Shown: positions 4,420-25,204 of the stretch, one piece after another | How positions within the stretch are numbered: the first letter of the stretch is position 1 | How the letters are laid out: every line of letters begins with the position of its first letter | The notes under the pieces: model-generated | The model's database searches: none | Told to the model about the DNA's origin: nothing | The model's input: only the letters and a program-made list of their open reading frames with translations | Assembly: GCA_964467135.1 (NCBI GenBank) | Contig: CAYXOZ010000005.1 | Location: 1 to 25,204, forward strand | DNA length: 25,204 nt | DNA from: an uncultured Dehalococcoidaceae bacterium | GTDB lineage: Bacteria > Chloroflexota > Dehalococcoidia > Dehalococcoidales > RBG-16-60-22 | Direction: 5' to 3' | Made by a program: the position numbers and the translations under genes

Positions 4420-4485
4420 CTGTGACTATCTTGTAACAGGCGTGCGACTTTTTGTGATTTGGATGTAACCGGGCGGAGTTAAAGT
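4420..4485 (+). promoter_or_regulatory. Promoter module 1: two 7-4-7 direct-repeat boxes plus -10
   Basis: CTGTGAC-TATC-TTGTAAC (4420-4437), TTGTGAT-TTGG-ATGTAAC (4452-4469), 10 nt, TAAAGT (4480-4485). The same geometry recurs at 16085-16150. Confidence 0.65.
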
Positions 4486-4595
4486 ATTGCCAGTTATTTC
4501 GTCAATTTGGTAAACCGTGTGAACAACGTAAGCAGCTTTAAAAACGCTGACGGTGTCTAACCGGCCCGGCATACCGGTTTCAAAGGAGGCGCAAC

Positions 4596-4814
4596 TTGCG
4601 AACAACCTTAGAAAAAACTTACCCGGAATATCTCACCACCGGTGTCGTGGCCAGGCACTGCGGCGTCAGTAAAGTGACCGTCCTGCGGTGGATTGAAAGG
4701 GGGAACCTGACGGCTTTCCGACTGCCCGGAGGGCAGAACCGGATACACCGGGACGACTTCTTCGCTTTCGCCGTCAGACACAGTATACCCATCAAGAAAA
4801 ACGATGACCAGTAA
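4596..4814 (+). CDS. Stand-alone excisionase/BldC-like (HTH_17, MerR-type) DNA-binding protein
   Basis: TTG start 6 nt after GGAGG; LTTGVVARHCGVSKVTVLRWIERGNLTAFRLPGGQNRI is a typical Xis/BldC-like winged HTH; 72 aa. Confidence 0.85.
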   Translation: MRTTLEKTYPEYLTTGVVARHCGVSKVTVLRWIERGNLTAFRLPGGQNRIHRDDFFAFAVRHSIPIKKNDDQ

Positions 4815-4904
4815 TAATCTGCCATACAGAGGGCCTCATCCGCCCCGGTTTCCCCAACAACCATAACCTGGCCTGTTAACCCTTTTAGTAGGAGGTACAC
4901 GCTC

Positions 4905-7900
4905 ATGTCCAGGTTCGAAAAGTCAACCATGTCACTCATCTTCCGCTATCTCCGCATCCTGATTGCCGCCGTCTTTCTCATCGGCTTTTTGCCCGCGCCG
5001 GCGCTGGCCGAGGGCACGCCGCCGGCAAATATCACCGACCTCGCGGCCGGCAGCCCCACGCACAACAGTATCGCCCTCAACTGGACGGCCCCCACCGATG
5101 ACGGACTGGCCACCCAGTATGAAATCCGGTACGCGACCACCGTTATCGGCAACGAAAACGCCTGGAACAGCGCCCAACCGGCGCAGAACGTTCCGCCGCC
5201 GCATACCGCCGGCACTCCGGAGAGCTTCGTTGTACCCAACCTCAGCGCCAATACCACCTATTTCTTCGCCGTCAAGACCCGGGACGATGAGGACCTTCTT
5301 TCCGGCCTGTCCAACTCCCCCTCCGCGACCACTTTATTATCGCCGACTTTCAGCATCACTCACAGCCAGAACCGCTATTCATTCATGCTCGCGGCGGGAG
5401 CCAATATTACCGAGACCTTCAACGTAACGTCATTGAATAATTTCACTGGGACCATCAACCTGGGTTTCGGCGGACCGCCGGAAATAGCCAATAACTCCTC
5501 GGTCACGCCCAACCAGGTCACCCTGTCACCCGGTCAAACGCAGGCAGTCGCCCTGAACATACGCGCCGGCGCCATGGCGCCTTCAGGTTCTTACCAGTGC
5601 GGACTCAACGGCAATGCCCCGGGCCAGCAGAAAAGCGCCTTTTTCACGGTCATCATCGGCGTGCCCGGGCAGCCGCTTTTATCAGCATCGCCGCCGGTGG
5701 TCGGTCCCGGAGGCCAGAGCAATATCTTCGCCGCGCAGTTCCCCGGCGCCGCTGACATCACCCTCAAATGGGACTCCGGCCCGAACGCCGGGCAGACCAT
5801 CACTTCGGGACAGACAACCGCGGAAGGGACCTGGAATACTTTATTGAGTATTCCGCCTCAGGTGCCCGGGGGAATCTTTATCCTGAAAGCGATTTCCGGC
5901 CAAGCCTCCGCCACCTGCCAGATAACGATTACCTCTGGCGCCGGCCCCGATTACCTTCTTTCCGCCTCCCCCCAGTTCGTTTCCATCACGCCCGGCCACT
6001 CCGCCAACGTCACTATTTACGTCCAATCTATTAGCGGCTTCAACAGCACCGTAACGCTTAATGCGGGCACCGCCCCCGGTGTGACCAGGAGTTTCTCGCC
6101 CACTAGCGTCACGCCCGCCAGCGGTGACACAGCATCCGCTATCCTGACCATCTCTGTAGCGGACTGGGCTTCCCCCAGCATGTACCAGTTGAACATCGAA
6201 GGGACCTGCGCCAGCCCGCCCATAAATAAGTTTACCAATATCAACCTGGACATCCAGCCGCAGGCGAACTGGGGCCCGGGTATCTCGCTATCGCAGTCCT
6301 ACGCCCGGGCCGGCGACATGATTACCGTCTCCGGCGCCAATTTCCCGCCGGCTACCCAGGGACAGGTGGTAACGATAAAAGAGGTATTTTCCAACACCAC
6401 GCTGCCGACCAACCCCGCCAGTATCACCGTCAACGGCGGCAGCTTTACCGGGACTTTCACCATCCCGTCCGGGATACCTTCCGGCAACTACCGCATTAAA
6501 GCCATCGTTCAGAGCACCGGCGACTTCGCCGAGAGGGACTTCCAGATTCTGGGGACCAGCGAGACCTTCACCCTGGGGGTATCACCGCAGTCGATGAGCG
6601 TGATGACGGAGCAGGACCACAACACGGCCATCGTTTCGGTGAATATCTTTTCCGTGGGCGGCAGCAGCGCTACCGTCAACCTGGCGCTGGAAGGCGTGCC
6701 GGGCTGGCTCACGTACCGGTTCGGCGCCCTGGCGGACAATACCCCGGCTACTGACGCCAATGCTGTATCCGTGCCCGCTGGCGGGTCAACCTCCGTTGAC
6801 CTTCAGCTTACCGCCAGCTTAACAGCGCCGACCGGCTCCTATCCGGTCACGATCAAAGGCTGGATAACGGCCAGCCCGGAACAGCGCGTCTCGTTACAGC
6901 TCATGATACAGCCGCCGTCCGGATTCGGTATGGCGGAGTTCACCCTCAGTCCCACCTTCGGGGAGAGCGGCCGGACGGTCACTTTCTCTGGCTCCGGCTT
7001 CACCGACTGCACGCCGAATGAAGTCAGGGCTCTTAATTTCGGCGGCATCGATATACTCGCCACCCAGAGCCTCCCCACCATCACCGTGCCTGCCTCCGGG
7101 GAGTCCGCGGGCAGGTTCTCCGGCACTTTCCGCGTGCCGGCGGCGCTAGCGCCGGGCACGTATCCGGTAGACATCAGAGTGGGCGATTCGCCCAGTAAAT
7201 TCATCGGCAAATCCTTCACGATAACCGGAGGCAGCGATACCTTCGTGCTACAGGCATCGCCGAGCTTCCTCTTTGTGCCTCAGGGCGGCCATATCACCAC
7301 CATGATACAGGTACAGGCCACCGGCTCCACGTCACCCACGGTTGCCCTGTCGCTGGAGGGATACCCGGCCAACGATATCGGCAGTCTCCTCAATCCCAAC
7401 AGCGTTACCGCGCCGCCAGGCGGCGTTGCCACCTCCGAGCTGACTCTGACCGCGCAGCCCTGGTTGCCGGCGGGCCATTACACGATTACCGTTAAGGGTA
7501 TCAGCGGCGCCGAGGTGCACCGTATCCCGCTGGAAATGGACGTGGCGCCGCCGGCCGGCATGAATATGGCTTCGATTTATCTCAGCCCGACGTCCGGGTA
7601 CGCTAGCACCTGGGTCACCATCAGCGGCAGCGGTTTCCAGGCGAACTCGAGCGTTACCCACCTCTATCTCGGACCGCCGACTGTCGACAACGACTGGGCG
7701 GGGCGCCTGCCGCCTATTGTGACCAACGAATCGGGGGCGTTTACCGCCGTTTTACAGATTCCATCAGTTCTGCCATCCGGCATGTACATGATTGAAGCGG
7801 TGACGGGCAACCCGCCCAACGACCGGAGGGCATCCGCCCAGTTTACCGTCTTCGGCAACGGGGCAAGTTTTAGCTTTAACCTATCTCCTAATATGATACA

Positions 7901-10900
7901 GGCACCGCCCGGTGCAACAGTAACGACATCCGTTAACGTGCAGTCGGTGGGGGCGTCCTCGTCCAACGTGACCCTCCGCGTCGAAGGCCCCCCGATAATC
8001 GAATGGCGTTTTGACGGCGGGGAGTGGGGAGCGCCTAAAACCGTCTCCCCGCCCATCGGCGCTTCCCTGGTATCCTCGCTGGAAATCCGGCCCAAGCCGG
8101 TGGCTCCCATGGGGCACTACTCGCTCGCGGTCAAAGCCGCCGCTGGCCAGCAAACAGAGATGCGTAACCTCGAGCTGGACATTGGCGCTTCCGCCGGATT
8201 TGACATGCCGATATTCTCGCTTAATCCCAATTCAGGTACGGCGGGCACTAACGTGTCCTTCAGCGGCTCGAACTTCCCGCCGGAAGCTAATATCACGGGA
8301 CTAACCTTCGGTGGGGCTAACATCACCCTCGGGCAAACGATTACCACCTCGGCGCAGCGCGCCTTTTCTGGCTCCTTCACCGTTCCCGCTACGCTGGGCG
8401 GTCAAGCCATCTCCCCGGGAACGTATGGCGTCAGGGTATACGTAGGCCAGGTTCAGGCGGAGACGCAGTTCTACGTTTACGGCGCCGATGATACCTTTAT
8501 GCTATCCTTATCTCCCAGTTATTTACAGGGCAGTCCCGGCATCCAGGTGCGTACATCCGGCCTGCTTAAAGCTTTAGCCGGCGCCGCCCCGACCGTTAAG
8601 ATGACGGTCAAGGGTCTGCCGCCTGGCGTGGAAACCGCCTGGAACGAAATCGTTCAACCCGTCTTTACCCTCGCCACACCGCCGGGAGGACAGAACAACT
8701 TCCAGCTGGGGCTGGTATTGCCCAACATGATACCGATGGGCATGTACCCGGCCGTCCTCGAAGGCTGGGTGGATACTAATGCGAACAACGTCTGGGACGC
8801 TAACGAAAAAATCAGTCGCGTCAATCTTGAGCTTTCGATTATGCCGCCCCAGGGCTATAACATGGGCATGCTTTCGCTCAATCCCAGCTTCGGCAGGGTG
8901 GGCGATACCATCACCTTCAGCGGCTCCGGGTTCGCCCGGAACACCGCGATTACCAGTTTGACCTTCGCCGGTAATAACATACTCATGGCGGATATCACTA
9001 CCTCCGATGACGACTCCGGCTCGTTCTCCGGGGTCTTCACCGTGCCCACCATGGGACCCGGCCGTTATCCGGTCGACGTCGTGGTAGGCGACCGCCGGGG
9101 CGGCTTTGAGTTCCAGATAGTCTCCGGCGACCAGAAGTTCAGCGTCAACGCCTCGCCGGGCTGGCTGGCGCGGCCGGCGGGAAATACCGGCAACGTCAAT
9201 ATCCAGGTAAGGTCTCTCGTCGCCACTCCGCCCAGTCCCTCCGTGGTCCTGCGGATAGAAGGACTGCCGATGGGTGTCACGCCGAGCTTCACTACCGCCA
9301 ACGTGACCCCGCCCGTCGGCGCGATGGAAAGTCGTGACCTTCAACTGACGATATCGAGCGGCTGCCCGATGGGCAACTATCCGATATCCGTCCGCGCCTA
9401 TAACGCCGCCAATCCCTCCGAGGAAATCTGGACGAACTTTACCCTCGAGGTAACGCCCTCCGCCGGTTTCATGGATATGGGCATGGCGATGGTCACCATA
9501 TCGCCCACTTTCGGTTCTGCCGGCGACCAGATAACGGTCAGCGGCTACGGCTTCCCCAAGAGCCAGAGCCTGACCTCCATACGACTCGGCCCGCAGAACA
9601 TCACCCCCGGCGTGGCTACTACCACCGATGACACCGGCGCTTTTTCCGCGGTAATTACCGTGCCATCCCTGCCTTCCGGGATGCACCCGCTGGAAGTCAA
9701 CGTACAGAACACCATCAGGAATCTGCCTTTCAATATCATGGGAGCGAGCGACACGTTCTCGCTGGAAGTCAGCCCCAACTGGCTGCAGCCTATACCTGCC
9801 GGCGACCCCAACGGACGCCAGATTGCCATCAGCGTTAACGCGCTACCCGGCAAGACGACCGCCGTCACTCTGAGGACGGAAGGGCTCTTCGCGGCTTACG
9901 GCACCATCACCGAGGTCTGGAACCCGACCTCGAAGTCGGTCAGCATTACCGATACGGGCGGCGCCGCCACGGCTACTCTGATACTAATCGCCTCGGAAAA
10001 CCTGCCGCCCGGCCCCTACCCCTTTAATATCGTGGCTATCGACGGCAGCAATAACCGGCGCGATTTCCATATGGAGTTCATGGTAGGCCCGCCGGCCGGC
10101 TTCATGAACAACGACTGGATGCAGCAGCAGGGCGTCTTCTTCCCGGAGATATTCCTATCACCCAAGAGCGGGTCGGTCGGCACGCAGGTGACGTTCACCG
10201 GCACTAACCTGCCCGCGGGCGCCAGCATTACCGCTATTAACTTCGCCGGTAACACGGTGCCGCTCCCCGCCGGCGGCCTCACGGCGGATGACACCGGCAG
10301 CCTTTCCGGCTCGTTCATCGTCAGCGAGGCCTGGAACCTGCCCGCCGGCGGCATGTACTGGGTGGACTTCCGACTGCAAAAGGACACCTGGTGGCAGAAC
10401 ATCGGCAAGGACTTTAACCTGATGCGGGCGGACGCCGCCTTCAGCCTGGAAGCCACGCCCAACTTTATACCGCCGATACAACCGGGGGGCAACGGGCAGA
10501 CAAAAATCAACGTTAAAGCCCTCGGCTATAACAGCGCCAACGTCTCGCTGGCGGTCATGGAGAGCCTGAACGGGTGGGGTATCCCGGGCGGGGTGCAGTT
10601 ACACTGGAACGCCGTCGACGGACCCGCCACGACCATCGCTAACGTCCCGGGCGGCGGCCAGACGGCGAAAGACTTTTACCTGGTCGCTTCCAACCCCGGC
10701 CATTACATGATAAACATCGTGGGCTGGATTGACAGCAACGCCAACCAGCTCCTCGAAAAGAACATACCTTCGGAAGCGCAATCCGAGTTCGGCATACCTT
10801 TGAACTTCGACGTCGCGCCGCCCGAGGGATTCCAGAACTGGAACATGGACACGATGATGGACCAGATGGACATGTCCAGTGACGATAAATACCTCTTTTA

Positions 10901-13900
10901 TTTCCCGGAGATTGTCCTGAACCCCGGTATGGGGCAGGCGGACACTAAAGTGAATATCAATGCCTCTGACTTCCCCGCTAACGCCGTGGTAACAAGCCTC
11001 CGCTTCGCCGGAACTAATCTACCCGTTCCCGCCGGCACCGCCGCGGACAGCAACGGGGACTTTTCGCTTGTCTTTAACGTCCCCAAGACCATGTGGAGCG
11101 CCAATATCACCGCCGGCTGGTACGACGTCGAGTTGGCGGCCGCCAAAGCCGGCGAGCCGGAAGTGCGCATCAGGAAGCCCTTCCAGGTGACCGATGCCAA
11201 CGTCGCCTTCACCCTCTGGGCCGAGCCCAACTGGCTGCCGCCGATTCCTCCCGGCGGCAGCGGCTCGGCGCTCATCCGCGTGAAGTCAATGGGCGTGGCC
11301 GCCAACGTAACGCTCTCGATGGATAAAATCCCGCCGGGTGTCACCACTACCTTCTCCGACGCGACGCTTGAGCTTAGCCCGGGCGGCTCGGAGAGCGCGA
11401 CCCTTACCCTGTCCCCGACGAACATCCCGCCGGGGCATTACGGCGCGGAAATCCGGGGCGCCGCTACCATCGGCGGGACCCCCAAGACCTTCTATACGCA
11501 TATCGAGTTCGAGGTGCAGCCGTCCACGATGTTTAAAGACACCGACTGGATGCAGCAGCAGGGTATCTGGTTCCCGGAAATAACCCTTAACCCCACCGCG
11601 GGACCGGTCAAGACCAAGGTAACGGTAAAAGCCACCGACTTCCCCGCCGGCGCTAACATCACCAACCTGCGTTTCGCCGGCAGGGAGCTCCCCATACCGG
11701 TTGGCACCGCCGCCAATAACGACGGCGACGCCGACCTTATCTTCAACGTGCCCGACGGCTACGGGGTCGGCCAGTACATGGTCGAAGTGGTCGCCACATC
11801 CGGCGCGCAGCCGGTGTTCATCGCCAAGCCCTTCTTCATCGAGGATGCCAACGTCACCTTCAAGCTCAACGTCGTGCCGGGCTTCATCGCCGGCGTGACG
11901 CAGGGCAGCTCGGGCAATACGACCATCTTTATTGAGTCGACCGGCCAGGCCCTGACCGTGCAGCTATACGTGGACGGGCTGCCGCCGGGCGTTATCGGAC
12001 TGTTTGAAAGCCAGAGCGTCAACGTGCCGCCGGGCGGCTCGAGCAACACCCGGCTGACCATCACCACCCGCGCTTCGACCGGTCCGGGCATGTACCCCCT
12101 GACCATACGGGGCGTCAGCGGCAGCTCTACCAGGACAGTACCTTTCGGCTTCGGCGTCATGCCGCCGGCCAGCTTCAACATGCCCAAGTTCACCCTCGAC
12201 CCCGACTACGCCCCCGCCGGCTACGACAATAAACAGTACAAGATAGCCTTCTCCGGGACCGGGTTCCCGGCCAGCCAGAGCGTCAGCAGTATCACCTTCG
12301 GCGCGCAGTCGGTTGCTATTCCGGCTAACCTGGCTACCGACGCCAACGGCAATTTCAGCGGCGTCTTCCAGATGCCCATCGGTCTGACCCCCGGCACCTA
12401 CGACGTCCGCATCGCCGTCGCCGACGGCCACGGAGGTTTTATCTATGACGCGCGGCCGTTCTCCATCAGGGGCTCTCAATCTAAATTCATGCTCAAAGCA
12501 TCGCCGCCTTACCTGCCGCCGGTGCTCCAGGGCGGACAGGGCACGACCATGATCACCGCCCAGTCCGTGGGCACTGTCGCGGCTAACGTTACCCTCTCCG
12601 TCGATGGTTTAGCGCCGGGTATCACGGCTGTCTTTACGCCGGGCAGCACTGTGACCGTTACCCCCGGCACCTCCAGCAGCGCCACGCTGACTCTTAACGT
12701 CAGCGCCAGCACGCCGCCCGGTCCTTATCCCCTGAGCATACGCGGCATCAGCGGCAGTGAAATGATAGTGATACCGCTCGGCTTCAGCGTCATGTCCAAT
12801 ATCGGCGGCGGAGGCGGTTACGCCTCCATTACCATCAATCCGCCTCAGGCCAGGCCCGGCGAGCATATCGGCGTATCCGGCGCCGGCTTTACCAGCGGCG
12901 CCACTATCACCCTGACGGCGGCGCCACCCGGCGCGGCCACCCCGATTAACATCACACCCGGGACGATACAGGTACTGAGCGACGGCACCTGGGCCACGGA
13001 AATCACCGTGCCTCCGGCCGCGCAGGTACCGCCCGGCTCTTATATCATTAAAGCCAGCGACGGCACCCTTGCCGCCAGGTGCCCGTTCAACATCGTCCCG
13101 GCCACCGGCGCCGACTTCTTCCTTACCGTCTCGCCGCAGTCCATCCAGGTGGTCAGGGGCCAGAACGCTAACACCACCATCAAGTTGACCTCCAAGAACG
13201 GGTTCAACCAGGTTATCCAGTTCAGCGTTGGTTTCCTGGCTCCCGGCGTCACCGCTACTTTCCGGGACGCCGCCGGTAATATCATCGGCCAGTACCAGGG
13301 CTCCCCGGGCGGCGTTCGGCAGACCATCGCGCCGGTAGCCCTGACCCCGGTGCCCGGTGAAGAACTGGTGGTCATCACCAACATCGCCGTGGATATAGCG
13401 ACACCGTTAGGTCCTTACGATATTCCGCTCGAGGTCAAGACCAGCACTATCGCCCGGGCAGTGCCGTTAGGTCTCATGGTAGTTTCCACCGGCGCCAACT
13501 TGAACCTATCGCCTTCAAGCGGGCCGGCGGACACCAATATCAGTCTCTCCGGTTCGGGCTTTACCGCCGGTGAGACCATCACCGCAAAATTCGCCGGCAA
13601 TAATATCACCACGGTGCCCGGCACCGTCACAGCGGGGCAGGACGGCACCTTTACCGCCGTTATCAGCGCTCCGGCGATGAACCCCGGTATCTACGCGGTC
13701 AGAGTCACCGGAGGCACCAGCGGCATCGTTATCGATAGACCGTTTAGTCTACAGCCATCCGCGGTTGATTCTTTCATCCTCTATACCAATCCGATGAAAG
13801 TCGATATCCCCAGGGGCGGCTCCGGCACGGCTATCATCAAGATTGAGCCGCTGGGCGGCTTACAGTCCTCGGTCGTCCTCAGCGTCACCGGGCTCAACGC

Positions 13901-15920: not shown

Positions 15921-15938
15921 AACCTCCTCTTTTTCCAG

Positions 15939-15986
15939 ACAGGCTTCCCCCTCTCTCCAAAATCGGGGGAGGGGAAGCCTGTTTTC
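15939..15986 (+). terminator. Rho-independent terminator after the giant gene
   Basis: ACAGGCTTCCCC...GGGGAAGCCTGT is a 12-bp perfect stem, extendable with G-U pairs, followed by a T run, 18 nt after the stop. Confidence 0.75.
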
Positions 15987-16084
15987 GGGGAGTCACCGAA
16001 GCCTCACACCGTCCACCCTGGCACTCACATTATTGCGCGCCTCCCGCCCTTGAACCGCCGGATAATATCAAGCGCTGAAATCGG

Positions 16085-16150
16085 TTGTGATATTCCTGTT
16101 AGGTTCTGCCAGCAGCCTGTGACAATATCGTGAGGCGATTTTTATATACT
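16085..16150 (+). promoter_or_regulatory. Promoter module 2: two 7-4-7 direct-repeat boxes plus -10
   Basis: TTGTGAT-ATTC-CTGTTAG (16085-16102), CTGTGAC-AATA-TCGTGAG (16117-16134), 10 nt, TATACT (16145-16150). Offsets (+32, +60) are identical to module 1. Confidence 0.65.
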
Positions 16151-16239
16151 TCAAACGTAGCAAACACCGCTAGCACCAGATATAACAATTCTTATTATTT
16201 ACTCACTGGCAGCCCGGTAACGCCGGTATGGAGGTAAGC

Positions 16240-16467
16240 TTGCCTAAAGCGCAGGAACAGTGGACCCCGGAGTTCATCTCCGTGGGCTTTATCGCCAAAC
16301 GCTGCGGCGTCAGCAATACCACCGTATTGCGCTGGATTAATACCCGCCAACTGCCGGCTTTTAAGCTTCCCGGCGGCCATTTCCGTATAGAGAGGACCGA
16401 ATTTTCCCGGTTCCTGGATAGACATCACATGCCGGTACGGGCCACGCGACTGGAAAAAACTCCGTAG
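16240..16467 (+). CDS. Second stand-alone excisionase/BldC-like HTH protein (paralogue of 4596-4814)
   Basis: ISVGFIAKRCGVSNTTVLRWINTRQLPAFKLPGGHFRI...FSRFLDRHHMP. TTG 16240 is preferred because GGAGG (16230-16234) lies 5 nt upstream; the in-frame ATG at 16228 lacks an RBS. Confidence 0.85.
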   Translation: MPKAQEQWTPEFISVGFIAKRCGVSNTTVLRWINTRQLPAFKLPGGHFRIERTEFSRFLDRHHMPVRATRLEKTP

Positions 16468-16580
16468 TGATTCTGAGACGATTAATATGCATATAGCCGA
16501 CAAAAACGGGCAAAAGGGATTAACACTATGTAACGGAACGGTCCGTGTTACTCAGGAATAAACACTACGGGAGGTAAGAA

Positions 16581-16967
16581 ATGCCAAAAGACATGGCCCA
16601 TAAAATACGTCGATTCCTCAGGAAAATCGACCGTAATGGCAAGGGTTTTACCCTGGTGGAACTGCTTATCGTCGTGGCTATCCTGGGCGTCCTGGCGGCG
16701 GTCGTCCTGCCTAACGTCACCGGTCTCGCCGGCGAAGGGCAGGAGGAAGCCGCCAAGGCCGAGCTGGTGACCGTGCAGACAGCCATGGACACGATGATGG
16801 CGAAAAGCCACATCACCTCGGTCACCGCCACCACCACCACTGACGATATGTCGGCTTTTCCGACAGGACGGCCGTTATATCCGGATTACCTGAGGACTGA
16901 CACCACCAAGGGCACTTATTCCTGTACCATCACCGGTCTGGTTACCCAGGTATCTAAAGGCTATTAG
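16581..16967 (+). CDS. Type IV pilin (PilA-like prepilin)
   Basis: GGAGGT RBS; basic 22-aa leader; class III cleavage site KG|FTLVELLIVVAILGVLAAVVLP with Glu at +5. Confidence 0.92.
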   Translation: MPKDMAHKIRRFLRKIDRNGKGFTLVELLIVVAILGVLAAVVLPNVTGLAGEGQEEAAKAELVTVQTAMDTMMAKSHITSVTATTTTDDMSAFPTGRPLYPDYLRTDTTKGTYSCTITGLVTQVSKGY

Positions 16968-17057
16968 TCGCCAGGATCAGCCGCCCGGATTGTACCCTTC
17001 CTTCGCGGGCGTAATTAACCGCGTTATCCCTGACGCGCAGGTATCAGGAGAAGAGAT

Positions 17058-19883
17058 ATGACCATCGGAGTAACCCGTTTTCGGCGGTGGGGATATAATA
17101 TCCCCCGGACTGCTTCAGCCATTGTGCGTTTCATATTCGAGCCCTCATCCGGTGTGGATCCGATGCAGCGGCGACGTGTCCGCATGCTCTCGATTTTCCT
17201 GCTGATAATGACCGTCAACACGATAGTAAGCATGCTGGTCCTGAAAAATGTCGGCGGCGACCCGTGGATAGTCCTGCAGGGTACCTCTCTGGCCCTTTTC
17301 CTGGGTTATCTGGTCAGCCGCACCAGGTACTACCAGGCGGCGCTGGTGGTGGCTATCACCATACCCGCCCTCCCTCCGCTGGCTATCGCCCTTTTCAAAC
17401 CTCCCGAAGTGAACCTTTCGGTGGAACTGATGTGGCTGGCCCTGCCGTTGATGGTCGCCGCCCTGATGCTGACGGCGAGAGGAACCATCATCGTCGCTAT
17501 CGGTTATGCGTCCTTTACCGCGGCGCTCAAGGTGTTCGGCTTGATGGAAATGAAAGACCTGGCGCCTGTGATAGGCTACCTCATTATCGTTACCTTTTTC
17601 GTGATTGTCATCTCCATCATCCGTAAAAGAGACCGGGTGGAAATAGAGAACCAGGTTATTGAGTTGCAGCGCGTCGAGAAGCTGCTGAGTGAGAACAACG
17701 AACAATTGGACACGATACTGAATTCCATCCCCTGTGGCATCATCGTTGTTGACGAAGAAGCACACGTTATCCAGGACGTCAACAACTACGCGAGCCGCAT
17801 CATCGGTCTGCGCCCGGAGGAGATTATCGGGAAAGAGTGTCACCGGTTCATCTGCCCCACCCAGCGGGGGAAATGCCCCATCACCGACCTGGGCTCGCAA
17901 ACCGATAACTCGGAGCGGGTACTCATTGATACCAGCGGTAAGTCCATACCCATCCTGAAAAATATTGTGCGGGTGACGATGGGCGGGCGGCGGTACCTGC
18001 TGGAGACTTTTGTTGACATCACCGAACGCAAGCGTATCGAAGCGGCGCTGAGAGAATCGGAGGAGCAGTTCTCCAAAGCCTTTCACGCCAGCCCCGACTC
18101 TATCTCGATTTCCCGATTAAGCGACGGCGTCTTTATCGAAGTAAACGAGAGTTATACCCGCACCTTCGGCTATACCCGCGAAGAGCTGGTCGGTCACAAT
18201 GCCGACGATTTGAATCTGTGGGCCAATCCGGAACAGCGGGAAAGCATGCTCCGGAAGATACGCGAACGTGTCATCATGAATAATGAAGAAATCCAGACAC
18301 GTACCAAAGCGGGTGAAATCCGCACCCAGCTGATATCCAGCGAATACGTCTCTATCGGGGGTGAACCCTGCCTTCTCGTGGTCAGCACCGACATTTCCGA
18401 GCGCAAGAGTATGGAAGAGTCCCTGGCCAACGAAGCTATACGCCGCCGTATCCTGATCGAGCAGTCGCGCGACGGCATCGTTATCCTCGACCAGGACGGC
18501 ACGGTCTTCGAAGCCAATCGCCGGTTCGCGGAAATGCTGGGTTATTCTTCGGAAGAAATCCTCAAGCTCAATGTCTGGGACTGGGAATTCCTTTATCCGC
18601 CGGAACAGGTAAAGGAAATGTTAAGGACCGTCGGCGAGGCCGGCGACCATTTTAAGACGACTCACCGGCGCAAAGACGGCACGACCCTCGATGTTGAAAT
18701 AAGCACCAACGGAGCGATGTTCTCGGGACAAAAGCTTATTTTTTGCGTCTGCCGGGACATATCCGAGCGCAACCGCATGGAGAAAGCCCTGAGGGAGTCT
18801 GAGGAAAAATTCTCCAAAGCTTTTTACAATATCCCGGAGGCTATCTCCATTTCCAGGTTGAGCGACGGAACCTTCGTAGAGGTGAACGATACCTACACGC
18901 GCGTCACCGGCTACACGCGAGATAAAGCAATAGGTCGCTCTTCGGAGGAGTTAAAACTCTGGGTAAACGCTGACCAGCGTAACGAGGTGATACGCCGGAT
19001 ACAGGCAGGGGGACGTGTCGAGAATGAAGAGTTCCAGCTCGTGGTGAAATCGGGGGAAAAACGGACCATACTGCTATCCGCCGATATCATCAACATCAAC
19101 GGCGAACCCTGCCTGTTAATTATCGGCAACGACATCAGCGAACGTAAGCGCGCCGAAGAAAAACTGAAAGAAGCGCTGGCTAACCTGGAACGCTCCAGCG
19201 GCCAGCTCGCGGCGACGAACAAAGAGCTGGAGGCCTTCAGCTATTCCGTGTCTCATGACCTCAGGTCGCCGTTAAGGAGCATCGACGGTTTCAGCCAGGC
19301 GCTCATCGAAGATTATAAAGACACACTCGATGAAAAAGGCCAGGACTACCTCCAGCGCCTCCGCAGCGCCAGCCAGAAAATGGGCGAGCTCATCGACGGC
19401 ATATTGAAACTCTCGCGCCTTACCCGGAGCGAAATACACCATGAGCCGATTGACCTGAGCGCGCTGGCCCGGGAGATTGCCGGCAGGCTCCAGGAAGCGC
19501 AACCGGAACGCCGGGCGGAATTCGTCATCCATAACGATTTGACCGCCACCGGAGACCCCCAGTTGATGAGAGTGCTGCTGGAAAACCTGCTGGGTAATGC
19601 CTGGAAATTTACCGGTAAAAAGCCGACCGCGAAGATAGAATTCGGGGTAGAAAACCAGAACGGCCGGCAGTCCTATTTCATTAGAGACAATGGCGCCGGG
19701 TTCGACATGACCTATGTGGATAAGCTTTTTGGCGCTTTCCAGCGCCTCCATGAGGTGACGGAGTTCCCCGGTACGGGTATCGGCCTGGCCACGGTGAAGC
19801 GGATTATCCACCGCCACGGCGGTACTATCTGGGCCGAGGGACAACCGGGGGAAGGCGCTACGTTTCACTTCACCATTAATTAA
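17058..19883 (+). CDS. Membrane-bound PAS (x4) sensor histidine kinase
   Basis: N-terminal multi-TM region; four PAS/PAC units; H-box FSYSVSHDLRSPLRSIDGF; HATPase boxes NLLGNAWKF, DNGAGFD and GTGIGLA; AGGAG RBS. Confidence 0.92.
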   Translation: MTIGVTRFRRWGYNIPRTASAIVRFIFEPSSGVDPMQRRRVRMLSIFLLIMTVNTIVSMLVLKNVGGDPWIVLQGTSLALFLGYLVSRTRYYQAALVVAITIPALPPLAIALFKPPEVNLSVELMWLALPLMVAALMLTARGTIIVAIGYASFTAALKVFGLMEMKDLAPVIGYLIIVTFFVIVISIIRKRDRVEIENQVIELQRVEKLLSENNEQLDTILNSIPCGIIVVDEEAHVIQDVNNYASRIIGLRPEEIIGKECHRFICPTQRGKCPITDLGSQTDNSERVLIDTSGKSIPILKNIVRVTMGGRRYLLETFVDITERKRIEAALRESEEQFSKAFHASPDSISISRLSDGVFIEVNESYTRTFGYTREELVGHNADDLNLWANPEQRESMLRKIRERVIMNNEEIQTRTKAGEIRTQLISSEYVSIGGEPCLLVVSTDISERKSMEESLANEAIRRRILIEQSRDGIVILDQDGTVFEANRRFAEMLGYSSEEILKLNVWDWEFLYPPEQVKEMLRTVGEAGDHFKTTHRRKDGTTLDVEISTNGAMFSGQKLIFCVCRDISERNRMEKALRESEEKFSKAFYNIPEAISISRLSDGTFVEVNDTYTRVTGYTRDKAIGRSSEELKLWVNADQRNEVIRRIQAGGRVENEEFQLVVKSGEKRTILLSADIININGEPCLLIIGNDISERKRAEEKLKEALANLERSSGQLAATNKELEAFSYSVSHDLRSPLRSIDGFSQALIEDYKDTLDEKGQDYLQRLRSASQKMGELIDGILKLSRLTRSEIHHEPIDLSALAREIAGRLQEAQPERRAEFVIHNDLTATGDPQLMRVLLENLLGNAWKFTGKKPTAKIEFGVENQNGRQSYFIRDNGAGFDMTYVDKLFGAFQRLHEVTEFPGTGIGLATVKRIIHRHGGTIWAEGQPGEGATFHFTIN

Positions 19884-19895: not shown

Positions 19896-20345
19896 ATGAT
19901 AGGAAGAGACGAAGTAATTCTGCTGGTGGAAGATAACCCGGATGACGTTGAGCTTACCATGAGGGCGTTCCAGAAAAATAACATCGCCAACGAGGTAGTC
20001 GTGGCCCGCGACGGGGTGGAAGCCCTGGACTATCTCTTCTGCCAGGGAGCTCACGTAAACCGGGATATCACTAAAACCCCGAGGCTTGTGCTCCTCGACT
20101 TAAAATTGCCGAAACTCGACGGCCTCCAGGTGCTGGAGCGCCTCCGCGCCGATGACCGCACCAAGCTCGTTCCCGTCGTTATCCTGACATCTTCGAGGGA
20201 GGAACAGGACCTCATCAGCGGCTACCGCTCCGGGGCAAACAGCTATGTGCGTAAACCGGTGGACTTTAATCAGTTTCTCAACGCCGTCCGCCAGATAGGA
20301 CTCTACTGGCTATTGATAAATGAATCGCCGGCTCAGCAATACTAA
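19896..20345 (+). CDS. Single-domain response regulator (Rcp1-like)
   Basis: ILLVEDNPDD, LLDLKLPKLDG, ILTSS and NSYVRKPVDF...YWL; no output domain; AGGAG RBS. Confidence 0.92.
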   Translation: MIGRDEVILLVEDNPDDVELTMRAFQKNNIANEVVVARDGVEALDYLFCQGAHVNRDITKTPRLVLLDLKLPKLDGLQVLERLRADDRTKLVPVVILTSSREEQDLISGYRSGANSYVRKPVDFNQFLNAVRQIGLYWLLINESPAQQY

Positions 20346-20393: not shown

Positions 20394-23300
20394 ATGGAAA
20401 ACGGGAATATTAAAGTTTTACTGATTGAAGACAACCCCGATGATACCGAGCTGCTCCTGAGAAAGCTGGGGAAGTCGGTGAACGGCCAGCTGGCAGTTAC
20501 CACCGTGAAAACCCTGCACGACGCGCTGGAATATATCAGGGAGAACAAACCGGATATCATCTTAAGCGACCTCGGACTGCCGGACAGTCACGGCCTCGAT
20601 ACCGTCACCAAAATAATGTGCGAAGAGCCGCAGATACCCCTGGTAGTGCTCAGCGGGTTCGATGATGAGGCTACCGCCATTAAAGCCGTACAGTCCGGCG
20701 CGCAGGACTACCTGGTAAAGGGGCAGCTGGAGGGCCGGCAGATAGAACGCGTCCTCTTCTACGCCATCGAGCGGGCCCGGTTACAATCGGAGCTGGAGCA
20801 ACATACCCAGGAAATAACCAAAATCCAGTCCAATCTATTGAAAATCCTGGGGAAAAACGCTGATGCCATCATCGTCGTCGGCGAGAAGGGGCGGATACTG
20901 TTTGCCAATCCGGCCGCCGAGTCCCTTCTGGACCAGAAGAAAAAAGACCTGATTAACGAATCATTTAGTTTCCCGCTGAACAAAGGCAAAAAGTCGGAAA
21001 TAATCATCAAGCATCGCGGCAGGAATGATACTGTCGCCGAGATGAACGTAGTTGAAATCAACTGGGAAGGCAAGCCCGCCTATCTGGCATCCCTGCGTGA
21101 TATCACCGAGCGCAAGCAGATGGAAGAGGCCGTGAGAGAATCGGAAGCCAAATTCTCCAAGGCGTTCCATTCCAGCGCCAACCTGTTCGCCATCAATAAG
21201 CTCGAAGACGGTAATTTCATCGAAGTGAATGAAAGCTTCACCCGAATAACGGGCTATTCCCGTAAAGAGGCTATCGGCCATAATGCCACCGACCTCAATC
21301 TCTGGGCTGACGAAGAAGAGCAGGCCAGAATCGTTAAAAAGACCAGAGAAAACGAGATACTGCGTAACGAACAAATCAAAATCCGCCACAAGTCAGGCGA
21401 GATACGCAACGGGCTTTTTTCCAGCGAGCAGATTACCGTCGGCGGTGAACCCTGCTTTATTCACACTATTACCGATATCACCGAGCTCAAGCGGGCTGAG
21501 GAACAGCTGCGCGTATCGGAAGACAAGTTTTCCAAAGCTTTCCGCCACAGCCCGGAAGGGATAGTCATCTCCCGCGTAGAGGACGGCACGATACTGGAAG
21601 CCAACGATACCTTTTTACGACTCACCGGCTATACCCATGAAGAAGTCATCGGGAAGAAATCCATCGAGCTGGGACTCTGGGCAAATCCGGAAGAACGCGG
21701 GGAAATACTTAAAATACTAAAAGACGAAGGGACGGTGAACAACCGGGAATGCCAGTTCCGCATGAGGTCCGGCGAAATCCGCACCTGGCTTTTTTCCGCT
21801 GAGATCATCAATATCAACAACAATCCCTACATGCTTTCCGTGACCACCGATATTACCGAGCGTAAAAAGGTCGAGGAAAAGCTGCGCTATTCGGATACCG
21901 CCCTGAACTCCATCCATGAAGGCGTCTTCGCCACGGATAATCAATTTATCATTTCCCGGTGGAACGAGATTTGCGAACAGATGTTTGGCACTAAAGCCTC
22001 CGAGGCTATCGGGAAACTCGTGGGCGATGTCATTGTGATGGTCGAAGACTACCCGAAGCAAAACGAAAAGCGCTTCGCCCTCCTCATGACCAAAGGGTTC
22101 AACCAGGAGGAGCAGATTTACCGGACCCCAAAGGGTAATATCTGGGTCGACGTGCACGCCCAGGCGATAGAGGAAAACGGCAAGCGCTTCGGCTGGGTAA
22201 CCCTGGTAACGGACATTACCCCCCGCAAGAGGGCGGAAGAGGAACTGCGCTTCTCCCACGCCGCCTTCCGGTCCATCCATGAAAGTGTCATCGCCACGGA
22301 CACGAAATACGTCATCACCCACTGGAACGATATCAGCGAACAGATGTACGGGACTAAAGCCGCCGAGGCCATCGGCAAGAAGCTGATGGACGTTATCGAG
22401 ATTGAGGAAAATTTGCCTGGTGAAAACGAGCGGCGGTTACAAAGACTGGAGTCCGACGGCTACTACCGTGAAGAGCAGCTGCACCGCACCAGATACGGTG
22501 AGGTATGGGTCGATGTCAGCGTGCAGGCGATAGAAGAAAACGGGAAACGTTACGGCTGGATAGTGTTAGCCTCGGCGATATCCCAGCGTAAACTGGCTGA
22601 GGAGGCGCTCAAACGGAGCGAGGAAAAATACCGGGAGCTTATCAACACCTCCACCGACGGTATCGTCTCCACCGATGCCGGGATGAGGGTCATCATCTGG
22701 AACCAGGGAGCGGAAAAAATATTCGGGTATAAAGAAAAGGAAATGCTGGGGCAATCCTTATTGAAAATTATCCCGGAGAGGGAGCATACAAGAACGAAAA
22801 AAGAGCAACACAGTATAAAAAATACCATAACGGAGAAAACAAACCGCATCATCGAGGGTATCGGCCTGAGAAAGGATGGGAAAGAGATACCGATTGAGCT
22901 TTCGCTATCGGCCAGAGAAAATGAGGGCACTTTCATCGCTACCGCCATCATCAGAGATGTCACCGAACGCAAAGAAGCCGAGGAAAAGCTGCGGAAAATC
23001 GACCAGATGAAACAAGAGTTCCTCTCCAATATCTCTCACGAGCTGCGCACACCGCTCCAGTCCATCGGCGGCTTTACCAAGTTGATACTAACCGGCCAGG
23101 TCCCCGACCCCACCGTCCAGCAGGAGTTCCTGCAAATTATCGACCGCGAGACTTCACACATCGGCAATCTCATCAATAACCTGCTGGACATGTCCCGGCT
23201 GGAATCCGGCCGTTTCCAGGTGAATAAGAGGCTCATACCGTTACGGCAGACCATCATCGATTCCGTCAAAACTTTTTACAGCATCGCCCGGGACAAAAAC

Positions 23301-23768
23301 ATCTCCCTCAAAGAGGAAATTCCCCGGGAGCTCCCGGAAATGGAAGTGGACAGTGAACGCCTGCGGCAGGTAATTATTAATTTGCTGAGCAACGCCATTA
23401 AATTCAGCGAACCCGGCGGCAGCGTTCTTGTCCGGGCGGAAAAACGCGAAGGAGAATTACTTTTCCAGGTTTCCGACCACGGTATGGGCATATCCCCGGA
23501 AGACCAGAAGCGCCTCTTCGAGAGGTTCTTCAGGGCGGAAGACAAAGCGGCGCAGGGCGGTACCGGACTGGGACTATATATCACCAAGCAGATTATCGAG
23601 GCGCACGGCGGGCGCATCTGGGTAGAAAGCAAAGTTAACGAAGGCAGCACCTTCAGTTTTAATCTGCCTTTTAACGGCAGAGGAGGCACCGGACATGACG
23701 AAAAAAATACTGGTCATCGAAGACGACCCGGCCATATCAAGACTGGTGGACTATTCCCTCAGGCATGA
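20394..23768 (+). CDS. Cytoplasmic hybrid kinase: REC - PAS(x6) - HisKA - HATPase
   Basis: N-terminal REC (LLIEDNPDD, LSDLGLPDS, YLVKG); six PAS/PAC units; ISHELRTPL, NLLSNAIKF, DHGMGI and GTGLGLYI; no TM segment. Confidence 0.92.
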   Translation: MENGNIKVLLIEDNPDDTELLLRKLGKSVNGQLAVTTVKTLHDALEYIRENKPDIILSDLGLPDSHGLDTVTKIMCEEPQIPLVVLSGFDDEATAIKAVQSGAQDYLVKGQLEGRQIERVLFYAIERARLQSELEQHTQEITKIQSNLLKILGKNADAIIVVGEKGRILFANPAAESLLDQKKKDLINESFSFPLNKGKKSEIIIKHRGRNDTVAEMNVVEINWEGKPAYLASLRDITERKQMEEAVRESEAKFSKAFHSSANLFAINKLEDGNFIEVNESFTRITGYSRKEAIGHNATDLNLWADEEEQARIVKKTRENEILRNEQIKIRHKSGEIRNGLFSSEQITVGGEPCFIHTITDITELKRAEEQLRVSEDKFSKAFRHSPEGIVISRVEDGTILEANDTFLRLTGYTHEEVIGKKSIELGLWANPEERGEILKILKDEGTVNNRECQFRMRSGEIRTWLFSAEIININNNPYMLSVTTDITERKKVEEKLRYSDTALNSIHEGVFATDNQFIISRWNEICEQMFGTKASEAIGKLVGDVIVMVEDYPKQNEKRFALLMTKGFNQEEQIYRTPKGNIWVDVHAQAIEENGKRFGWVTLVTDITPRKRAEEELRFSHAAFRSIHESVIATDTKYVITHWNDISEQMYGTKAAEAIGKKLMDVIEIEENLPGENERRLQRLESDGYYREEQLHRTRYGEVWVDVSVQAIEENGKRYGWIVLASAISQRKLAEEALKRSEEKYRELINTSTDGIVSTDAGMRVIIWNQGAEKIFGYKEKEMLGQSLLKIIPEREHTRTKKEQHSIKNTITEKTNRIIEGIGLRKDGKEIPIELSLSARENEGTFIATAIIRDVTERKEAEEKLRKIDQMKQEFLSNISHELRTPLQSIGGFTKLILTGQVPDPTVQQEFLQIIDRETSHIGNLINNLLDMSRLESGRFQVNKRLIPLRQTIIDSVKTFYSIARDKNISLKEEIPRELPEMEVDSERLRQVIINLLSNAIKFSEPGGSVLVRAEKREGELLFQVSDHGMGISPEDQKRLFERFFRAEDKAAQGGTGLGLYITKQIIEAHGGRIWVESKVNEGSTFSFNLPFNGRGGTGHDEKNTGHRRRPGHIKTGGLFPQA
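21882..22607 (+). repeat. Tandem PAS-domain duplication (363-nt period) within the hybrid kinase
   Basis: LRYSDTALNSIHE...QAIEENGKRFGW (from 21882) versus LRFSHAAFRSIHE...QAIEENGKRYGW (from 22245). Confidence 0.8.
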
Positions 23769-24096
23769 AGGCTATGAAGTTATTACCGCCGCCAACGGAC
23801 TGGAAGGCATCAGAAAAGCCCGCCTTGAAGCCCCCGACGTGGTCATTCTGGATGTCATGCTGCCGGGCATGGACGGCTTCGAAATCTGTCACCGCCTGCG
23901 GTCCGAGCCGGACACGGCCCAACTGCGGATATTGATGTTTTCCGCCAAAGCCCAGGAGATAGATAAAAATACCGGGCTGAAAGTGGGGGCGGATGACTAT
24001 TTACCCAAACCGGCCGCCCCGGCGGAAATCGTGAGTCGGGTGGAAAAGCTGCTGGCAAAGAAGAAAAGCCACCGTGCCGCCGAGGAGAAGGTGTGA
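23695..24096 (+). CDS. Single-domain response regulator
   Basis: AGGAGG RBS; ILVIEDD, ILDVMLPGMDG, FSAK and DYLPKP; 133 aa with no output domain. Confidence 0.92.
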   Translation: MTKKILVIEDDPAISRLVDYSLRHEGYEVITAANGLEGIRKARLEAPDVVILDVMLPGMDGFEICHRLRSEPDTAQLRILMFSAKAQEIDKNTGLKVGADDYLPKPAAPAEIVSRVEKLLAKKKSHRAAEEKV

Positions 24097-25204
24097 CGAA
24101 CGATAATGACAGACCTCCCGCCGCCGCCAGAACTGCTAAAAAAAACCTCGGTGAGTTGCTCGTCGAAGAGGCGCTCATCACACCGGCGCAGCTGGAAAAC
24201 GCCCTGGCGCTGCAGAAACAAAAAGGGGGCACGCTGAGCGATGCCCTTTTAAGCCAGGGGGCCATTAAAGCCGAGCAGCTCGCCGTCATGCTCAGCATCA
24301 AGCTGAACCTGCCGCTTATCGACCTCAAGAGACACGTGATACAGCCCCGGGCCTTACGCCTCATCCCCGAGGAGATGGCGCGGAAACACACCCTTATTCC
24401 CATGGACATCGTCAACGACTCTCTGATGGTGGTCATGGCCGACCCGGAAGACGTCCGCACCATCGAGGATATCAAAGCCCAGGCTAAAATGAGGGTCGAG
24501 GTGGCTCTGGGTGTCCCTTCGGACATCGAACGCGCGATTAATATCAACTATAGGTCGAGCGGCGCCATCGAAAAACAGGTCAGTCAGTTTGCCCCGGCCG
24601 ATGCGGCAAAGACCGACGAGACCCCGGCAGTGACCGCCAGTACGCCCATCACGGAGACCCTCAATCTGCTGATTACCCAGGCGATTAAAGACCGGGCCTC
24701 GGACGTCCATATCGAACCGCAGGAGGATAGACTGCGTATCCGCTACCGGATTGACGGCATCCTCCACGACATGTTCGCCTTTCCGCTCAGCGTCCACGCG
24801 CCGCTGGTGTCACGCGTGAAAATCCTCGCCGAGATGGACATCTCCGAGCAGAGACGACCCCAGGACGGGCAATTTTCCCTGAGGGTCGGCAACAACGAGG
24901 TAGATATCCGCACCGCCACCATGGAAACGCCCTACGGGGAGAGGGTCACTTTAAGGATTCTGGACAAGTCCCTGGCGCTCTTCACTCTCTCCGAGCTCGG
25001 TTTCCAGCCCGACGCCCTGATAAAATACCAGGCCATGCTGAAGCGACCCCATGGCATGATACTGGCCGGCGGACCTACCGGCTCCGGCAAGACGACCACC
25101 CTCTACGCCTCCATCAATGAGCTCGACCGGAACGAGCGTAATATCATGACCATCGAGGACCCCATCGAGTACAGCTTCATGGATATCAACCAGAGCCAGG
25201 TAAA
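24093..25204 (+). CDS. pilB: PilB/GspE/PulE-family assembly ATPase, truncated by the window end
   Basis: Absent from the ORF track. GTG at 24093 overlaps the upstream TGA (GTGA) with GAGGAG 5 nt upstream, and the frame stays open to the end. MshEN-like N-terminus (NLGELLVEEALIT..QL..AL..Q), ASDVHIEP, RYRIDG, EMDISEQRRPQDG, Walker A GPTGSGKT (25071-25094) and TIEDPIEY. Confidence 0.93.
   Translation, partial: MTNDNDRPPAAARTAKKNLGELLVEEALITPAQLENALALQKQKGGTLSDALLSQGAIKAEQLAVMLSIKLNLPLIDLKRHVIQPRALRLIPEEMARKHTLIPMDIVNDSLMVVMADPEDVRTIEDIKAQAKMRVEVALGVPSDIERAININYRSSGAIEKQVSQFAPADAAKTDETPAVTASTPITETLNLLITQAIKDRASDVHIEPQEDRLRIRYRIDGILHDMFAFPLSVHAPLVSRVKILAEMDISEQRRPQDGQFSLRVGNNEVDIRTATMETPYGERVTLRILDKSLALFTLSELGFQPDALIKYQAMLKRPHGMILAGGPTGSGKTTTLYASINELDRNERNIMTIEDPIEYSFMDINQSQV

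Follow-up and report, generated by a model that had tools for sequence, protein, structure and literature searches.

The stretch of DNA considered here, referred to throughout as the window, comprises 25,204 nucleotides from an uncultured Dehalococcoidaceae bacterium (assembly GCA_964467135.1, contig CAYXOZ010000005.1, forward strand) and raises the question of why one small regulatory module stands twice on the same strand, once ahead of a gene for a giant surface protein and once ahead of a type IV pilus operon, and of which factor reads it. A sequence-only reading had described this module as a unit of two direct-repeat boxes, a -10 hexamer, a ribosome-binding site and a TTG-started gene for a small helix-turn-helix (HTH) protein, present in two copies 11.7 kb apart, and had proposed a single regulatory circuit that co-induces the surface protein as an adhesin and the pili. 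The duplication itself holds: the boxes are present in the window only at 4421, 4453, 16086 and 16118, the two HTH proteins (HTH1 and HTH2) are paralogues of 72 and 75 aa, and the starts of the two units are 11,665 bp apart. As to the regulation, the explanation favoured here, judging from the sequence and with a confidence only a little above even, is that the two units are co-regulated from activator-dependent promoters devoid of a -35 element, whose boxes are likely bound by the HTH_17 proteins themselves.

The boxes of each unit form a double box, located on the + strand in both cases: TGTGACtatctTGTAAC and TGTGATttggaTGTAAC separated by 15 nt at 4421..4469, and TGTGATattccTGTTAG and TGTGACaatatCGTGAG separated by 15 nt at 16086..16134. 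A single box is made of two direct hexamers (TGTGAY/TGTRAN) with an 11-bp period, so that each promoter has four hexamer starts at 0, +11, +32 and +43; the four hexamers face the same side of the helix and fill the place usually taken by the -35 element. The -10-like hexamer TAAAGT of unit 1 (4480..4485, +) and the -10 hexamer TATACT of unit 2 (16145..16150, +) both lie 10 nt past the last hexamer. Neither promoter has a properly spaced -35 match, and for this reason a sigma-70 consensus scanner called no + strand promoter at either module; this silence fits a -35-less, activator-dependent promoter and alone says little. The pattern TGTGAY-N5-YGTNAS has exactly four matches on the two strands of the window, namely the four boxes, all on the + strand, compared to a mean of 0.03 in shuffled sequence, a figure to be read with the fact that the pattern was fitted post hoc to these sites. 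The 32-nt spacing, identical in both box pairs, and the conservation in relatives are independent of this fitting. When one mismatch is allowed only three further matches appear, all in coding regions and near chance. A global alignment of the two upstream regions was uninformative and anchoring on the boxes was required. In unit 2 the -10 hexamer is followed by a conserved leader block, CAAACGTAGCAAACACCGCTAGCACC (16151-16176), and in both units a leader (83-104 nt) and a strong Shine-Dalgarno (SD) sequence precede the TTG start of the HTH gene: HTH1 is encoded at 4596..4814 (+; SD AGGAGG at 4584-4589; Pfam HTH_17, E 1.3e-10) and HTH2 at 16240..16467 (+; SD GGAGG at 16230-16234; Pfam HTH_17, E 1.2e-10).

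The conservation of this architecture was followed by a scan with the HTH alignment, with one genome per species, which yielded 53 loci, nearly all in metagenome-assembled genomes (MAGs) of Dehalococcoidales; 45 species loci were compared, and the window proteins were mapped onto the related loci, here numbered with the prefix L, by tblastn. The double box has 59 matches in the 873 kb of related loci and window, searched on both strands, all of them on the + strand and each followed within 320 nt by a gene of this HTH_17 family. Hexamers, 32-nt spacing and position of the -10 hexamer are invariant across the related loci, and the spacer sequences vary. In particular, the HTH2 promoter has the consensus cTTGTGAtaTTtcTGTgA-N14-TGTGA-N5-tTGTGA-N10-ATATACT, followed by the conserved leader; the consensus of -10 and leader, from 37 distinct promoter sequences, is ATATACTtCAAA.gTA.CAA.CAC.GCtA.CacC, and TAAAGT is found at the same offset in most HTH1 promoters of relatives. 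The TTG codon is also conserved: it occupies the aligned start in 38 of 45 genes for HTH2 and in 18 of 25 for HTH1, and an SD sequence almost always accompanies it. Since the same operator and promoter architecture is conserved over dozens of species, common control of both units is plausible. The leader of HTH1 (window 4486-4560; L003-L031) shows a further series of hexamers past the -10 with a 10-nt period, GTTAAC-N4-GTTAAC-N4-GTGAAC-AAC-GTAAG, which is degenerate in the window and may represent a second operator or an RNA element. A third and more distant HTH_17 paralogue, of 81 aa and with a TTG start (L056 3663-3832, L057 9689-9857), is preceded by two double boxes in tandem and has a context unrelated to pili, being followed by the gene of a 105-aa protein of no known function and adjoined by that of a thiamine pyrophosphate (TPP) enzyme.

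HTH1 and HTH2 are identical in 31 of 67 residues (46%, E 7e-23), and HTH2 has 144 close homologues, all of about 75 aa, the best named of which belongs to 'Chloroflexi bacterium RBG_13_57_8'. Both proteins pass the TIGR01764 model of excisionase-family DNA-binding proteins (38.3 and 40.0 bits, cut-off 28.8), and profile searches against PDB sequences match RacA, a CarH-like protein, the Xis of mycobacteriophage Pukovnik and BldC. The Xis/BldC-like character that had been proposed is borne out by the AlphaFold2 model of HTH2 (mean predicted local distance difference test score 82, elements E-H-H-E-H), whose best structural matches are BldC-DNA complexes: 6ama_B with a TM-score of 0.85 and a root-mean-square deviation (rmsd) of 1.2 A, and 6amk_B with a TM-score of 0.91 and an rmsd of 0.9 A. 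The R31-W32 pair of the recognition helix, invariant in HTH1 and HTH2, aligns with the ...TVTRW... motif that contains the base-reading Arg30 of BldC. In BldC this recognition-helix arginine reads a guanine, and the protein binds head-to-tail to two or four 9-bp direct repeats, AATTXXXX(C) units (PMC5859096); BldC is in this respect a precedent for a monomeric HTH protein of this fold that reads direct repeats. As BldC of Streptomyces, HTH1 and HTH2 are stand-alone winged helix-turn-helix proteins of about 70 aa with neither a coiled coil nor an effector domain; both retain the base-reading Arg and the GGH-R wing motif, and the 2+2 direct repeats at the promoters of the HTH genes themselves resemble the two or four repeats of BldC. 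On the other hand, HTH1 and HTH2 have only about 25% identity to BldC, and their genes are the first cistrons of pilus and adhesin operons, the binding to the boxes being predicted.

This type of HTH_17 domain is also found in fusion with a receiver (REC) domain. An HTH_17-REC protein of 187 aa, the HTH part of which is 47% identical to HTH2 (L053 9968-10531; also in L052, L054 and L055), is encoded in MAGs of Vulcanimicrobiota and Synergistia; its REC-like domain is C-terminal and has a degenerate acidic pocket, and the fusion genes (L052-L055) are not preceded by a double box. The fusion can be taken as a hint, of the domain-fusion kind, of a possible partnership between HTH and REC proteins. 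DigR of Myxococcus was considered as an analogue of this fusion and was ruled out due to its C-terminal HTH_Xre domain and palindromic site (PMC3509222).

The second module heads, as had been read from the sequence, a pilin gene followed by a kinase, a REC protein, a REC-kinase, a second REC protein and PilB, with gaps of +12, +48, -74 and -4 nt from the first kinase onward. The gene map, obtained from the open reading frame (ORF) listing and Pfam/NCBIfam scans of the window, assigns to this operon, entirely on the + strand, a major prepilin (16581..16967, 128 aa, Pfam N_methyl 1.7e-9), a membrane sensor kinase (17058..19883, 941 aa) with about 5-6 transmembrane (TM) segments at residues 41-190, four PAS domains, HisKA and HATPase_c, a first single-domain REC-only response regulator (19896..20345, 149 aa), a soluble hybrid kinase of the form REC - PAS x ~6 - HisKA - HATPase_c (20394..23768, 1124 aa), a last single-domain REC-only response regulator (23695..24096, 133 aa) and a PilB-type extension ATPase (24093..25204, GTG start, T2SSE 6e-62), of which the N-terminal 370 aa are encoded before the window ends and the gene continues beyond it. 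The pilin gene directly follows HTH2 in 41 of the 45 species loci, with a gap of only 24-62 nt in L007, L008, L009 and L012, and no terminator was found in the gap between HTH2 and pilin or in that between HTH1 and the giant gene, which speaks for co-transcription in each unit. The prepilin has a long basic leader ending in ...NGKG before FTLVELLIVVAILGVLAAVVLPN, with Gly-1, Phe+1 and Glu+5 (KG/FTLVE), and thus a class III signal peptide (G/F-x-x-x-E; TIGR02532, 31.5 bits versus a cut-off of 16.3). The order kinase, REC, REC-kinase, REC, PilB is kept in relatives, in which the first REC is 70-86% identical. The end of the hybrid-kinase gene and the last REC ORF share 74 nt, an overlap also kept in relatives, and the GTG start of PilB overlaps the REC stop codon (GTGA); both overlaps suggest translational coupling.

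PilB carries the Pfam domain MshEN at its N-terminus, where the NF053729 model of the c-di-GMP-binding motif scores 53.7 bits versus a cut-off of 38 (residues 16-65, ORF read from 24102); PilB shares this motif with the c-di-GMP-binding ATPases of the MshE/PilB type, and ligand binding is predicted. At two positions the first motif departs from the consensus, with Asn instead of Arg and Ala instead of Gly. The difference from the MshE/PilB-type ATPases is the translational coupling of pilB, as the overlap suggests, to a REC-only gene. The presence of further pil genes downstream, which the window cannot show, was followed in relatives, in which full-length PilB orthologues have 568-569 aa: PilC (T2SSF/GspF) is encoded directly after PilB in L003, L029 and L035, and past PilC the L029 contig encodes two pilin-like proteins, a 344-aa protein with bactofilin-like repeats and a GspM/PilO-like protein. 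Neither PilD nor PilT was found within the 4 kb visible after PilC in L029.

In Pseudomonas, Myxococcus and Geobacter, pilA is controlled by PilS-PilR, and the locus resembles that system in having a two-component system encoded beside the major pilin gene and presumably controlling pilus production. The earlier statement that the window contains neither PilS/PilR nor a Chp chemosensory system is correct, since domain scans revealed no NtrC-type regulator and no Che protein among the window ORFs. Unlike PilS-PilR, the pilin gene has no NtrC-type sigma-54 activator and no sigma-54 promoter: the TGGCAC-N5-TTGCW pattern has chance-level matches, none of which falls in 16468-16580. In addition, the relay is multi-step (HK, REC, REC-HK, REC), all three REC-bearing proteins are devoid of a DNA-binding output domain, and a BldC-like mini-regulator heads the operon. 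The spacer between HTH2 and pilin contains a mini-ORF (16516..16533, +) in which an SD-like GGGA is followed by an ATG (16528-16530) directly abutting a TAA stop codon (16531-16533). The combination of a strong SD, ATG, at most five codons and stop recurs in 22 of 36 orthologous spacers versus 3.2 +/- 1.8 in shuffles. In the relatives (L001-L050) it encodes MM-stop, MMK-stop, MA-stop, MGQI-stop and others, and the spacer around it shows no conservation. Its function may be that of a translational (start-stop) or Rho-control element acting on the pilin. Known RNA elements, including riboswitches such as those for c-di-GMP, gave no Rfam match at the gathering score in the whole window, and none even at E <= 1 in 4360-4960 or 15900-17100, which cover the leaders and the spacer between HTH2 and pilin.

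The first module heads the giant gene (4905..15920, +), which begins 90 nt past the end of HTH1 and encodes 3671 aa. The earlier description of the product as a surface protein agrees with its signal peptide, with a predicted cleavage after ALA35, and its C-terminal membrane anchor. Along the chain, an N-terminal fn3 domain is followed by many immunoglobulin (Ig)-like repeats, with weak matches to TIG, MG2, CARDB and NPCBM_assoc; the C-terminal part consists of a Pro/Glu-rich stalk, a TM helix at about residues 3641-3661 and the basic tail RRIRSSSKNS. Giant repetitive Ig-like adhesins are represented, for example, by LapA, SiiE and Bap-type proteins, which share with the present protein a length of thousands of residues and tandem beta-sandwich domains behind a signal peptide. 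The differences lie in the C-terminal TM helix with basic tail, in place of type 1 secretion system retention, an LPXTG motif or an outer-membrane anchor, and in the mini-regulator of its own that heads the giant gene. From the architecture alone we infer that the giant protein would act as an adhesin. The end of unit 1 is marked by a terminator-like hairpin (15939..15987 including TTTTC, +; hairpin 15939-15982) with a 12-bp perfect stem, ACAGGCTTCCCC / GGGGAAGCCTGT, and a loop of 20 nt; it escaped the terminator consensus scanner, its loop being longer than 8 nt.

In relatives the same place is taken by orthologues of 3720-4345 aa (4345 aa in L060, 4223 aa in L063), and the succession of HTH1 and giant gene is seen directly in L060, L061, L062 and L063 with a gap of 55-90 nt. 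In the 45 species loci, the upstream neighbour of HTH2 is HTH1 in 24, a giant-gene match in 13 (including L007, which has only a deletion remnant) and the gene of a metallo-beta-lactamase (MBL)-fold hydrolase without HTH1 in 5. The closest relatives of the window are mixed, L001 having the giant gene and L006, L008 and L009 lacking it, from which it follows that this gene is often gained or lost. The linkage between adhesin and pilus that had been proposed is thus true in part: the series HTH1-giant-HTH2-pilin recurs in other species, and the conserved unit is the HTH1-HTH2 tandem before the pilin operon. Likewise, the synteny search suggested at that time gave a strong conservation of HTH2 with the pilin and an optional giant gene. 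The giant region (5001-16000) has a GC content of 0.59-0.64 versus 0.53-0.56 in the flanks and a strongly negative GC skew; the high GC is probably due to the composition of the protein, rich in Thr, Gly, Ala, Ser and Pro.

Two of the related loci deserve separate mention. In L007 a giant-gene remnant (9478-9750) lies between HTH1 and HTH2; what is left, 47% identical to residues 5-75, covers the signal peptide and the first part of the fn3 domain and is joined to a terminator hairpin akin to that of the window, as a consequence of a recent internal deletion of about 11 kb. In L062 (1-10225) the HTH1-giant unit comes directly after a second pilus-like cluster, composed of PilB, PilC, four proteins without family match, a 365-aa PilT-like ATPase and a 1085-aa protein.

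The occurrence of the promoter outside this setting was evaluated on metagenome contigs scanned with the double-box pattern alone, independently of any HTH gene; at least 87 matches were obtained (loci L064-L143), which represent a sample and not a census, and the counts given here concern the matches listed. This HTH_17 family is encoded downstream of 12 of the 87. A few TG-rich tandem repeats were treated as noise, and in 48 of the 62 remaining matches TAnnnT follows the last hexamer at a distance of exactly 10 nt, the consensus being TAtaCT; these double-box sites are the same composite promoter as that of the window. HTH_17 is the commonest family among the 61 downstream ORFs of the matches listed (10 of 61); the others include three 2-oxoacid dehydrogenase E2 proteins, three small zinc-ribbon proteins and two sortase-type pilins, with Usp, FtsH, PhaC and sulfatase found once each. 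Examples of double boxes before unrelated genes are those at L097 457-504 (-) and in L110, L143, L068, L082 and L103. Among the neighbours of the matches listed, 61 downstream and 52 divergent, the 25 most frequent families include neither Response_reg nor Trans_reg_C, and no regulator family is enriched in the divergent ones. One soil cluster belongs to Ktedonobacteraceae, its E2 protein being 86% identical to a protein of a named MAG, and therefore the promoter class spans at least two classes of Chloroflexota. Adhesin and pili may accordingly be two members of a larger regulon rather than the targets of a dedicated switch; what stands of the single dedicated circuit proposed earlier is the shared and conserved promoter architecture, which makes common control plausible, and what does not stand is its exclusivity, as the boxes also precede many unrelated genes. 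In L098 (3337-3384) and L100 (1994-2041), on contigs with 46-49% GC, a double box with TATAAT lies 70-80 nt 5' of genes for secreted proteins of at least 700 aa with SpaA and Gram-positive pilin backbone domains, that is, sortase-type pilins. No description of this promoter class turned up in limited literature searches, none of which was aimed specifically at it.

In the proposed explanation, a box-binding activator would turn the pilus and adhesin units on together. The activator would most likely be the HTH_17 proteins, lined up head-to-tail along the direct repeats in the manner of BldC and Xis proteins, and their binding would result in positive auto-regulation and in cross-regulation of both units. 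HTH_17 is favoured as the binder because its fold suits the role and because no other regulator family is linked to the boxes, either across the three paralogue groups or in the scan made independently of HTH genes. The regulator being the first cistron, its conserved weak TTG start would keep it scarce with respect to the structural proteins translated from the same mRNA. The relay, whose outputs are REC-only, would act by protein-protein contact, and two targets can be envisaged: the HTH proteins, since fused HTH_17-REC proteins exist in other phyla, and PilB, whose gene is coupled to the last REC and whose N-terminus has the c-di-GMP-binding motif. The giant adhesin would be an optional cargo of unit 1. 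A more far-reaching version, rather unlikely on the present evidence, considers a Chloroflexota-wide promoter class, marked by the four hexamers followed by TAnaCT and read by an autoregulating family of BldC-fold proteins of about 70 aa, two of which would form in Dehalococcoidales a bistable on-switch for the pili and, in species that have it, the giant adhesin, operated through REC-HTH contact; the locus would then be a split version of the HTH_17-REC fusions, with the output domain of a response regulator encoded as a separate gene.

Several observations weigh against HTH_17 proteins as readers of the boxes, and the main rival is that the boxes are operators of an unlinked regulator of the OmpR/PhoB/WalR family, perhaps fed by the kinases, which activates both promoters from the -35 position, the HTH_17 genes being simply the leading genes of two members of its regulon and their products acting elsewhere; this is possible, if somewhat doubtful. 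The proximal hexamer pair replaces the -35 element and ends about 10 bp before the -10, as in promoters of the PhoB/WalR type; Pho boxes show the same 10-bp distance between last hexamer and -10. The WalR consensus consists of direct hexamers, TGTWAH-N5-TGTWAH, so that hexamer pairs with a 5-nt spacer and an 11-bp period correspond to the WalR/VicR format, and the TGTAAC and TGTAAT half-sites fit TGTWAH (PMC4168254). The BldC precedent is, for its part, imperfect: the BldC repeat is a contiguous 9-bp AATTXXXX(C) unit (PMC5859096), unlike the TGTGAY hexamers, which follow an 11-bp period within two pairs set 32 bp apart and stop 10 bp short of the -10, and HTH1 and HTH2 score 33.6 and 23.3 bits with the NCBI BldC model NF033787, far below its cut-off of 77 bits, being therefore BldC-like in fold and not members of the BldC family. 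The third paralogue has Glu where HTH1 and HTH2 have the base-reading Arg and nevertheless retains the boxes. Furthermore, the paralogues probably arose by duplication of gene and promoter together, so that the association of boxes and genes does not amount to three independent observations. None of the sampled soil-type sites, among the matches listed, precedes an HTH_17 gene, and since the same promoter stands before many unrelated genes the binder could be a different, global factor; a composite element found before diverse genes in two classes of Chloroflexota would suit a regulator of the OmpR/WalR type, as would an operon with two kinases and three REC proteins and no DNA-binding output. 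Nonetheless, a Trans_reg_C regulator is encoded neither in the window nor among the listed genes of related contigs, and this family is missing from the 25 most frequent ones beside the metagenome boxes listed, where autoregulated OmpR-type operons would be expected. The first hexamer has G at position 4 and not W (TGTGAY versus TGTWAH), the two pairs at a fixed 32 bp differ from the PhoB/WalR-type promoters, no OmpR-family gene is linked to the examined sites, and a consistent link to the boxes is seen for no regulator family other than HTH_17.

The tie between the two units, rather than the binder, is called into question by the reading that both merely belong to a large global regulon, for example of stress or growth phase, and that the giant gene is an accessory insertion without relation to the pilus, which again seems possible but doubtful. 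The double box with its -10 before Usp, FtsH, 2-oxoacid dehydrogenase E2, PhaC, sulfatase and zinc-ribbon genes agrees with it, and so do the GC content of the giant region, above that of its flanks (0.59-0.64 versus 0.53-0.56), the deletion of the giant gene in L007 and its absence before HTH2 in most of the 45 species loci, the last point being also a difficulty for the co-regulation favoured here. Against it, the double box precedes no other gene in the 873 kb that surround the HTH genes, 13 of the 45 loci have a giant-gene match between HTH1 and HTH2 (in one case a remnant), the HTH1-giant pair of L062 stands beside a second PilB-PilC-PilT-like cluster, and the high GC is explicable by a protein rich in Gly, Ala, Pro and Thr. 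Finally, the passage of the TIGR01764 model by both HTH proteins and the variable presence of the giant gene between two homologous modules could indicate excisionases, that is, recombination directionality factors, with the giant gene on a mobile island between repeated modules. This is very improbable: no integrase or recombinase is encoded by the window ORFs or in the gene lists of related contigs, which makes an excisionase role unlikely, and the HTH pair keeps a fixed position, after the MBL gene and before the pilin, with or without the giant gene in the 45 species. The boxes, moreover, have promoter geometry and a conserved -10, and the deletion of L007 lies inside the giant gene and not between the modules. 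The mobile-island reading was rejected on account of the missing recombinase and the fixed synteny.

The machine itself is of an ordinary kind, a type IV pilus system in a cell that has no outer membrane, together with a giant Ig-repeat surface protein. The novelty is in the wiring, apparently undescribed: BldC-fold first cistrons, a four-hexamer promoter, a REC-only relay instead of PilS-PilR and a start-stop mini-ORF before the pilin. The titles and abstracts retrieved on type IV pili and pilins in Dehalococcoidia and Dehalococcoides contain no such arrangement. Dehalococcoidales, which lack a conventional cell wall, are abundant subsurface bacteria that are hard to grow, and to our knowledge essentially nothing is known of their attachment to minerals, partners or particles. 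In this regard the locus offers some handles, namely a conserved pilus operon, an optional adhesin of 3,600-4,350 aa, a 49-bp putative operator and two small candidate regulators. If the HTH_17 proteins bind the boxes, head-to-tail regulation of the BldC type would extend past actinomycete development to the surface appendages of another phylum, and a promoter class common to Dehalococcoidia and Ktedonobacteria could serve for the prediction of regulons from metagenomes. With its start-stop mini-ORF and TTG-started regulators, the locus also illustrates possible ways of setting expression levels within a single mRNA.

Upstream of the first module, the window encodes a NarI/DsrM-like membrane protein, a DsrK/HdrD-like Fe-S protein and DsrC (204-3065, +), a 179-aa ORF without family match (3084-3623, -) and the MBL-fold hydrolase (3730-4368, +). 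The order of Dsr set, minus-strand ORF and MBL gene, which has no evident functional tie to the pilus locus, is also found in L003 and in L007-L009. Within the Dsr set, the second ORF of the DsrM-like/DsrK-like pair overlaps the first by 68 nt.

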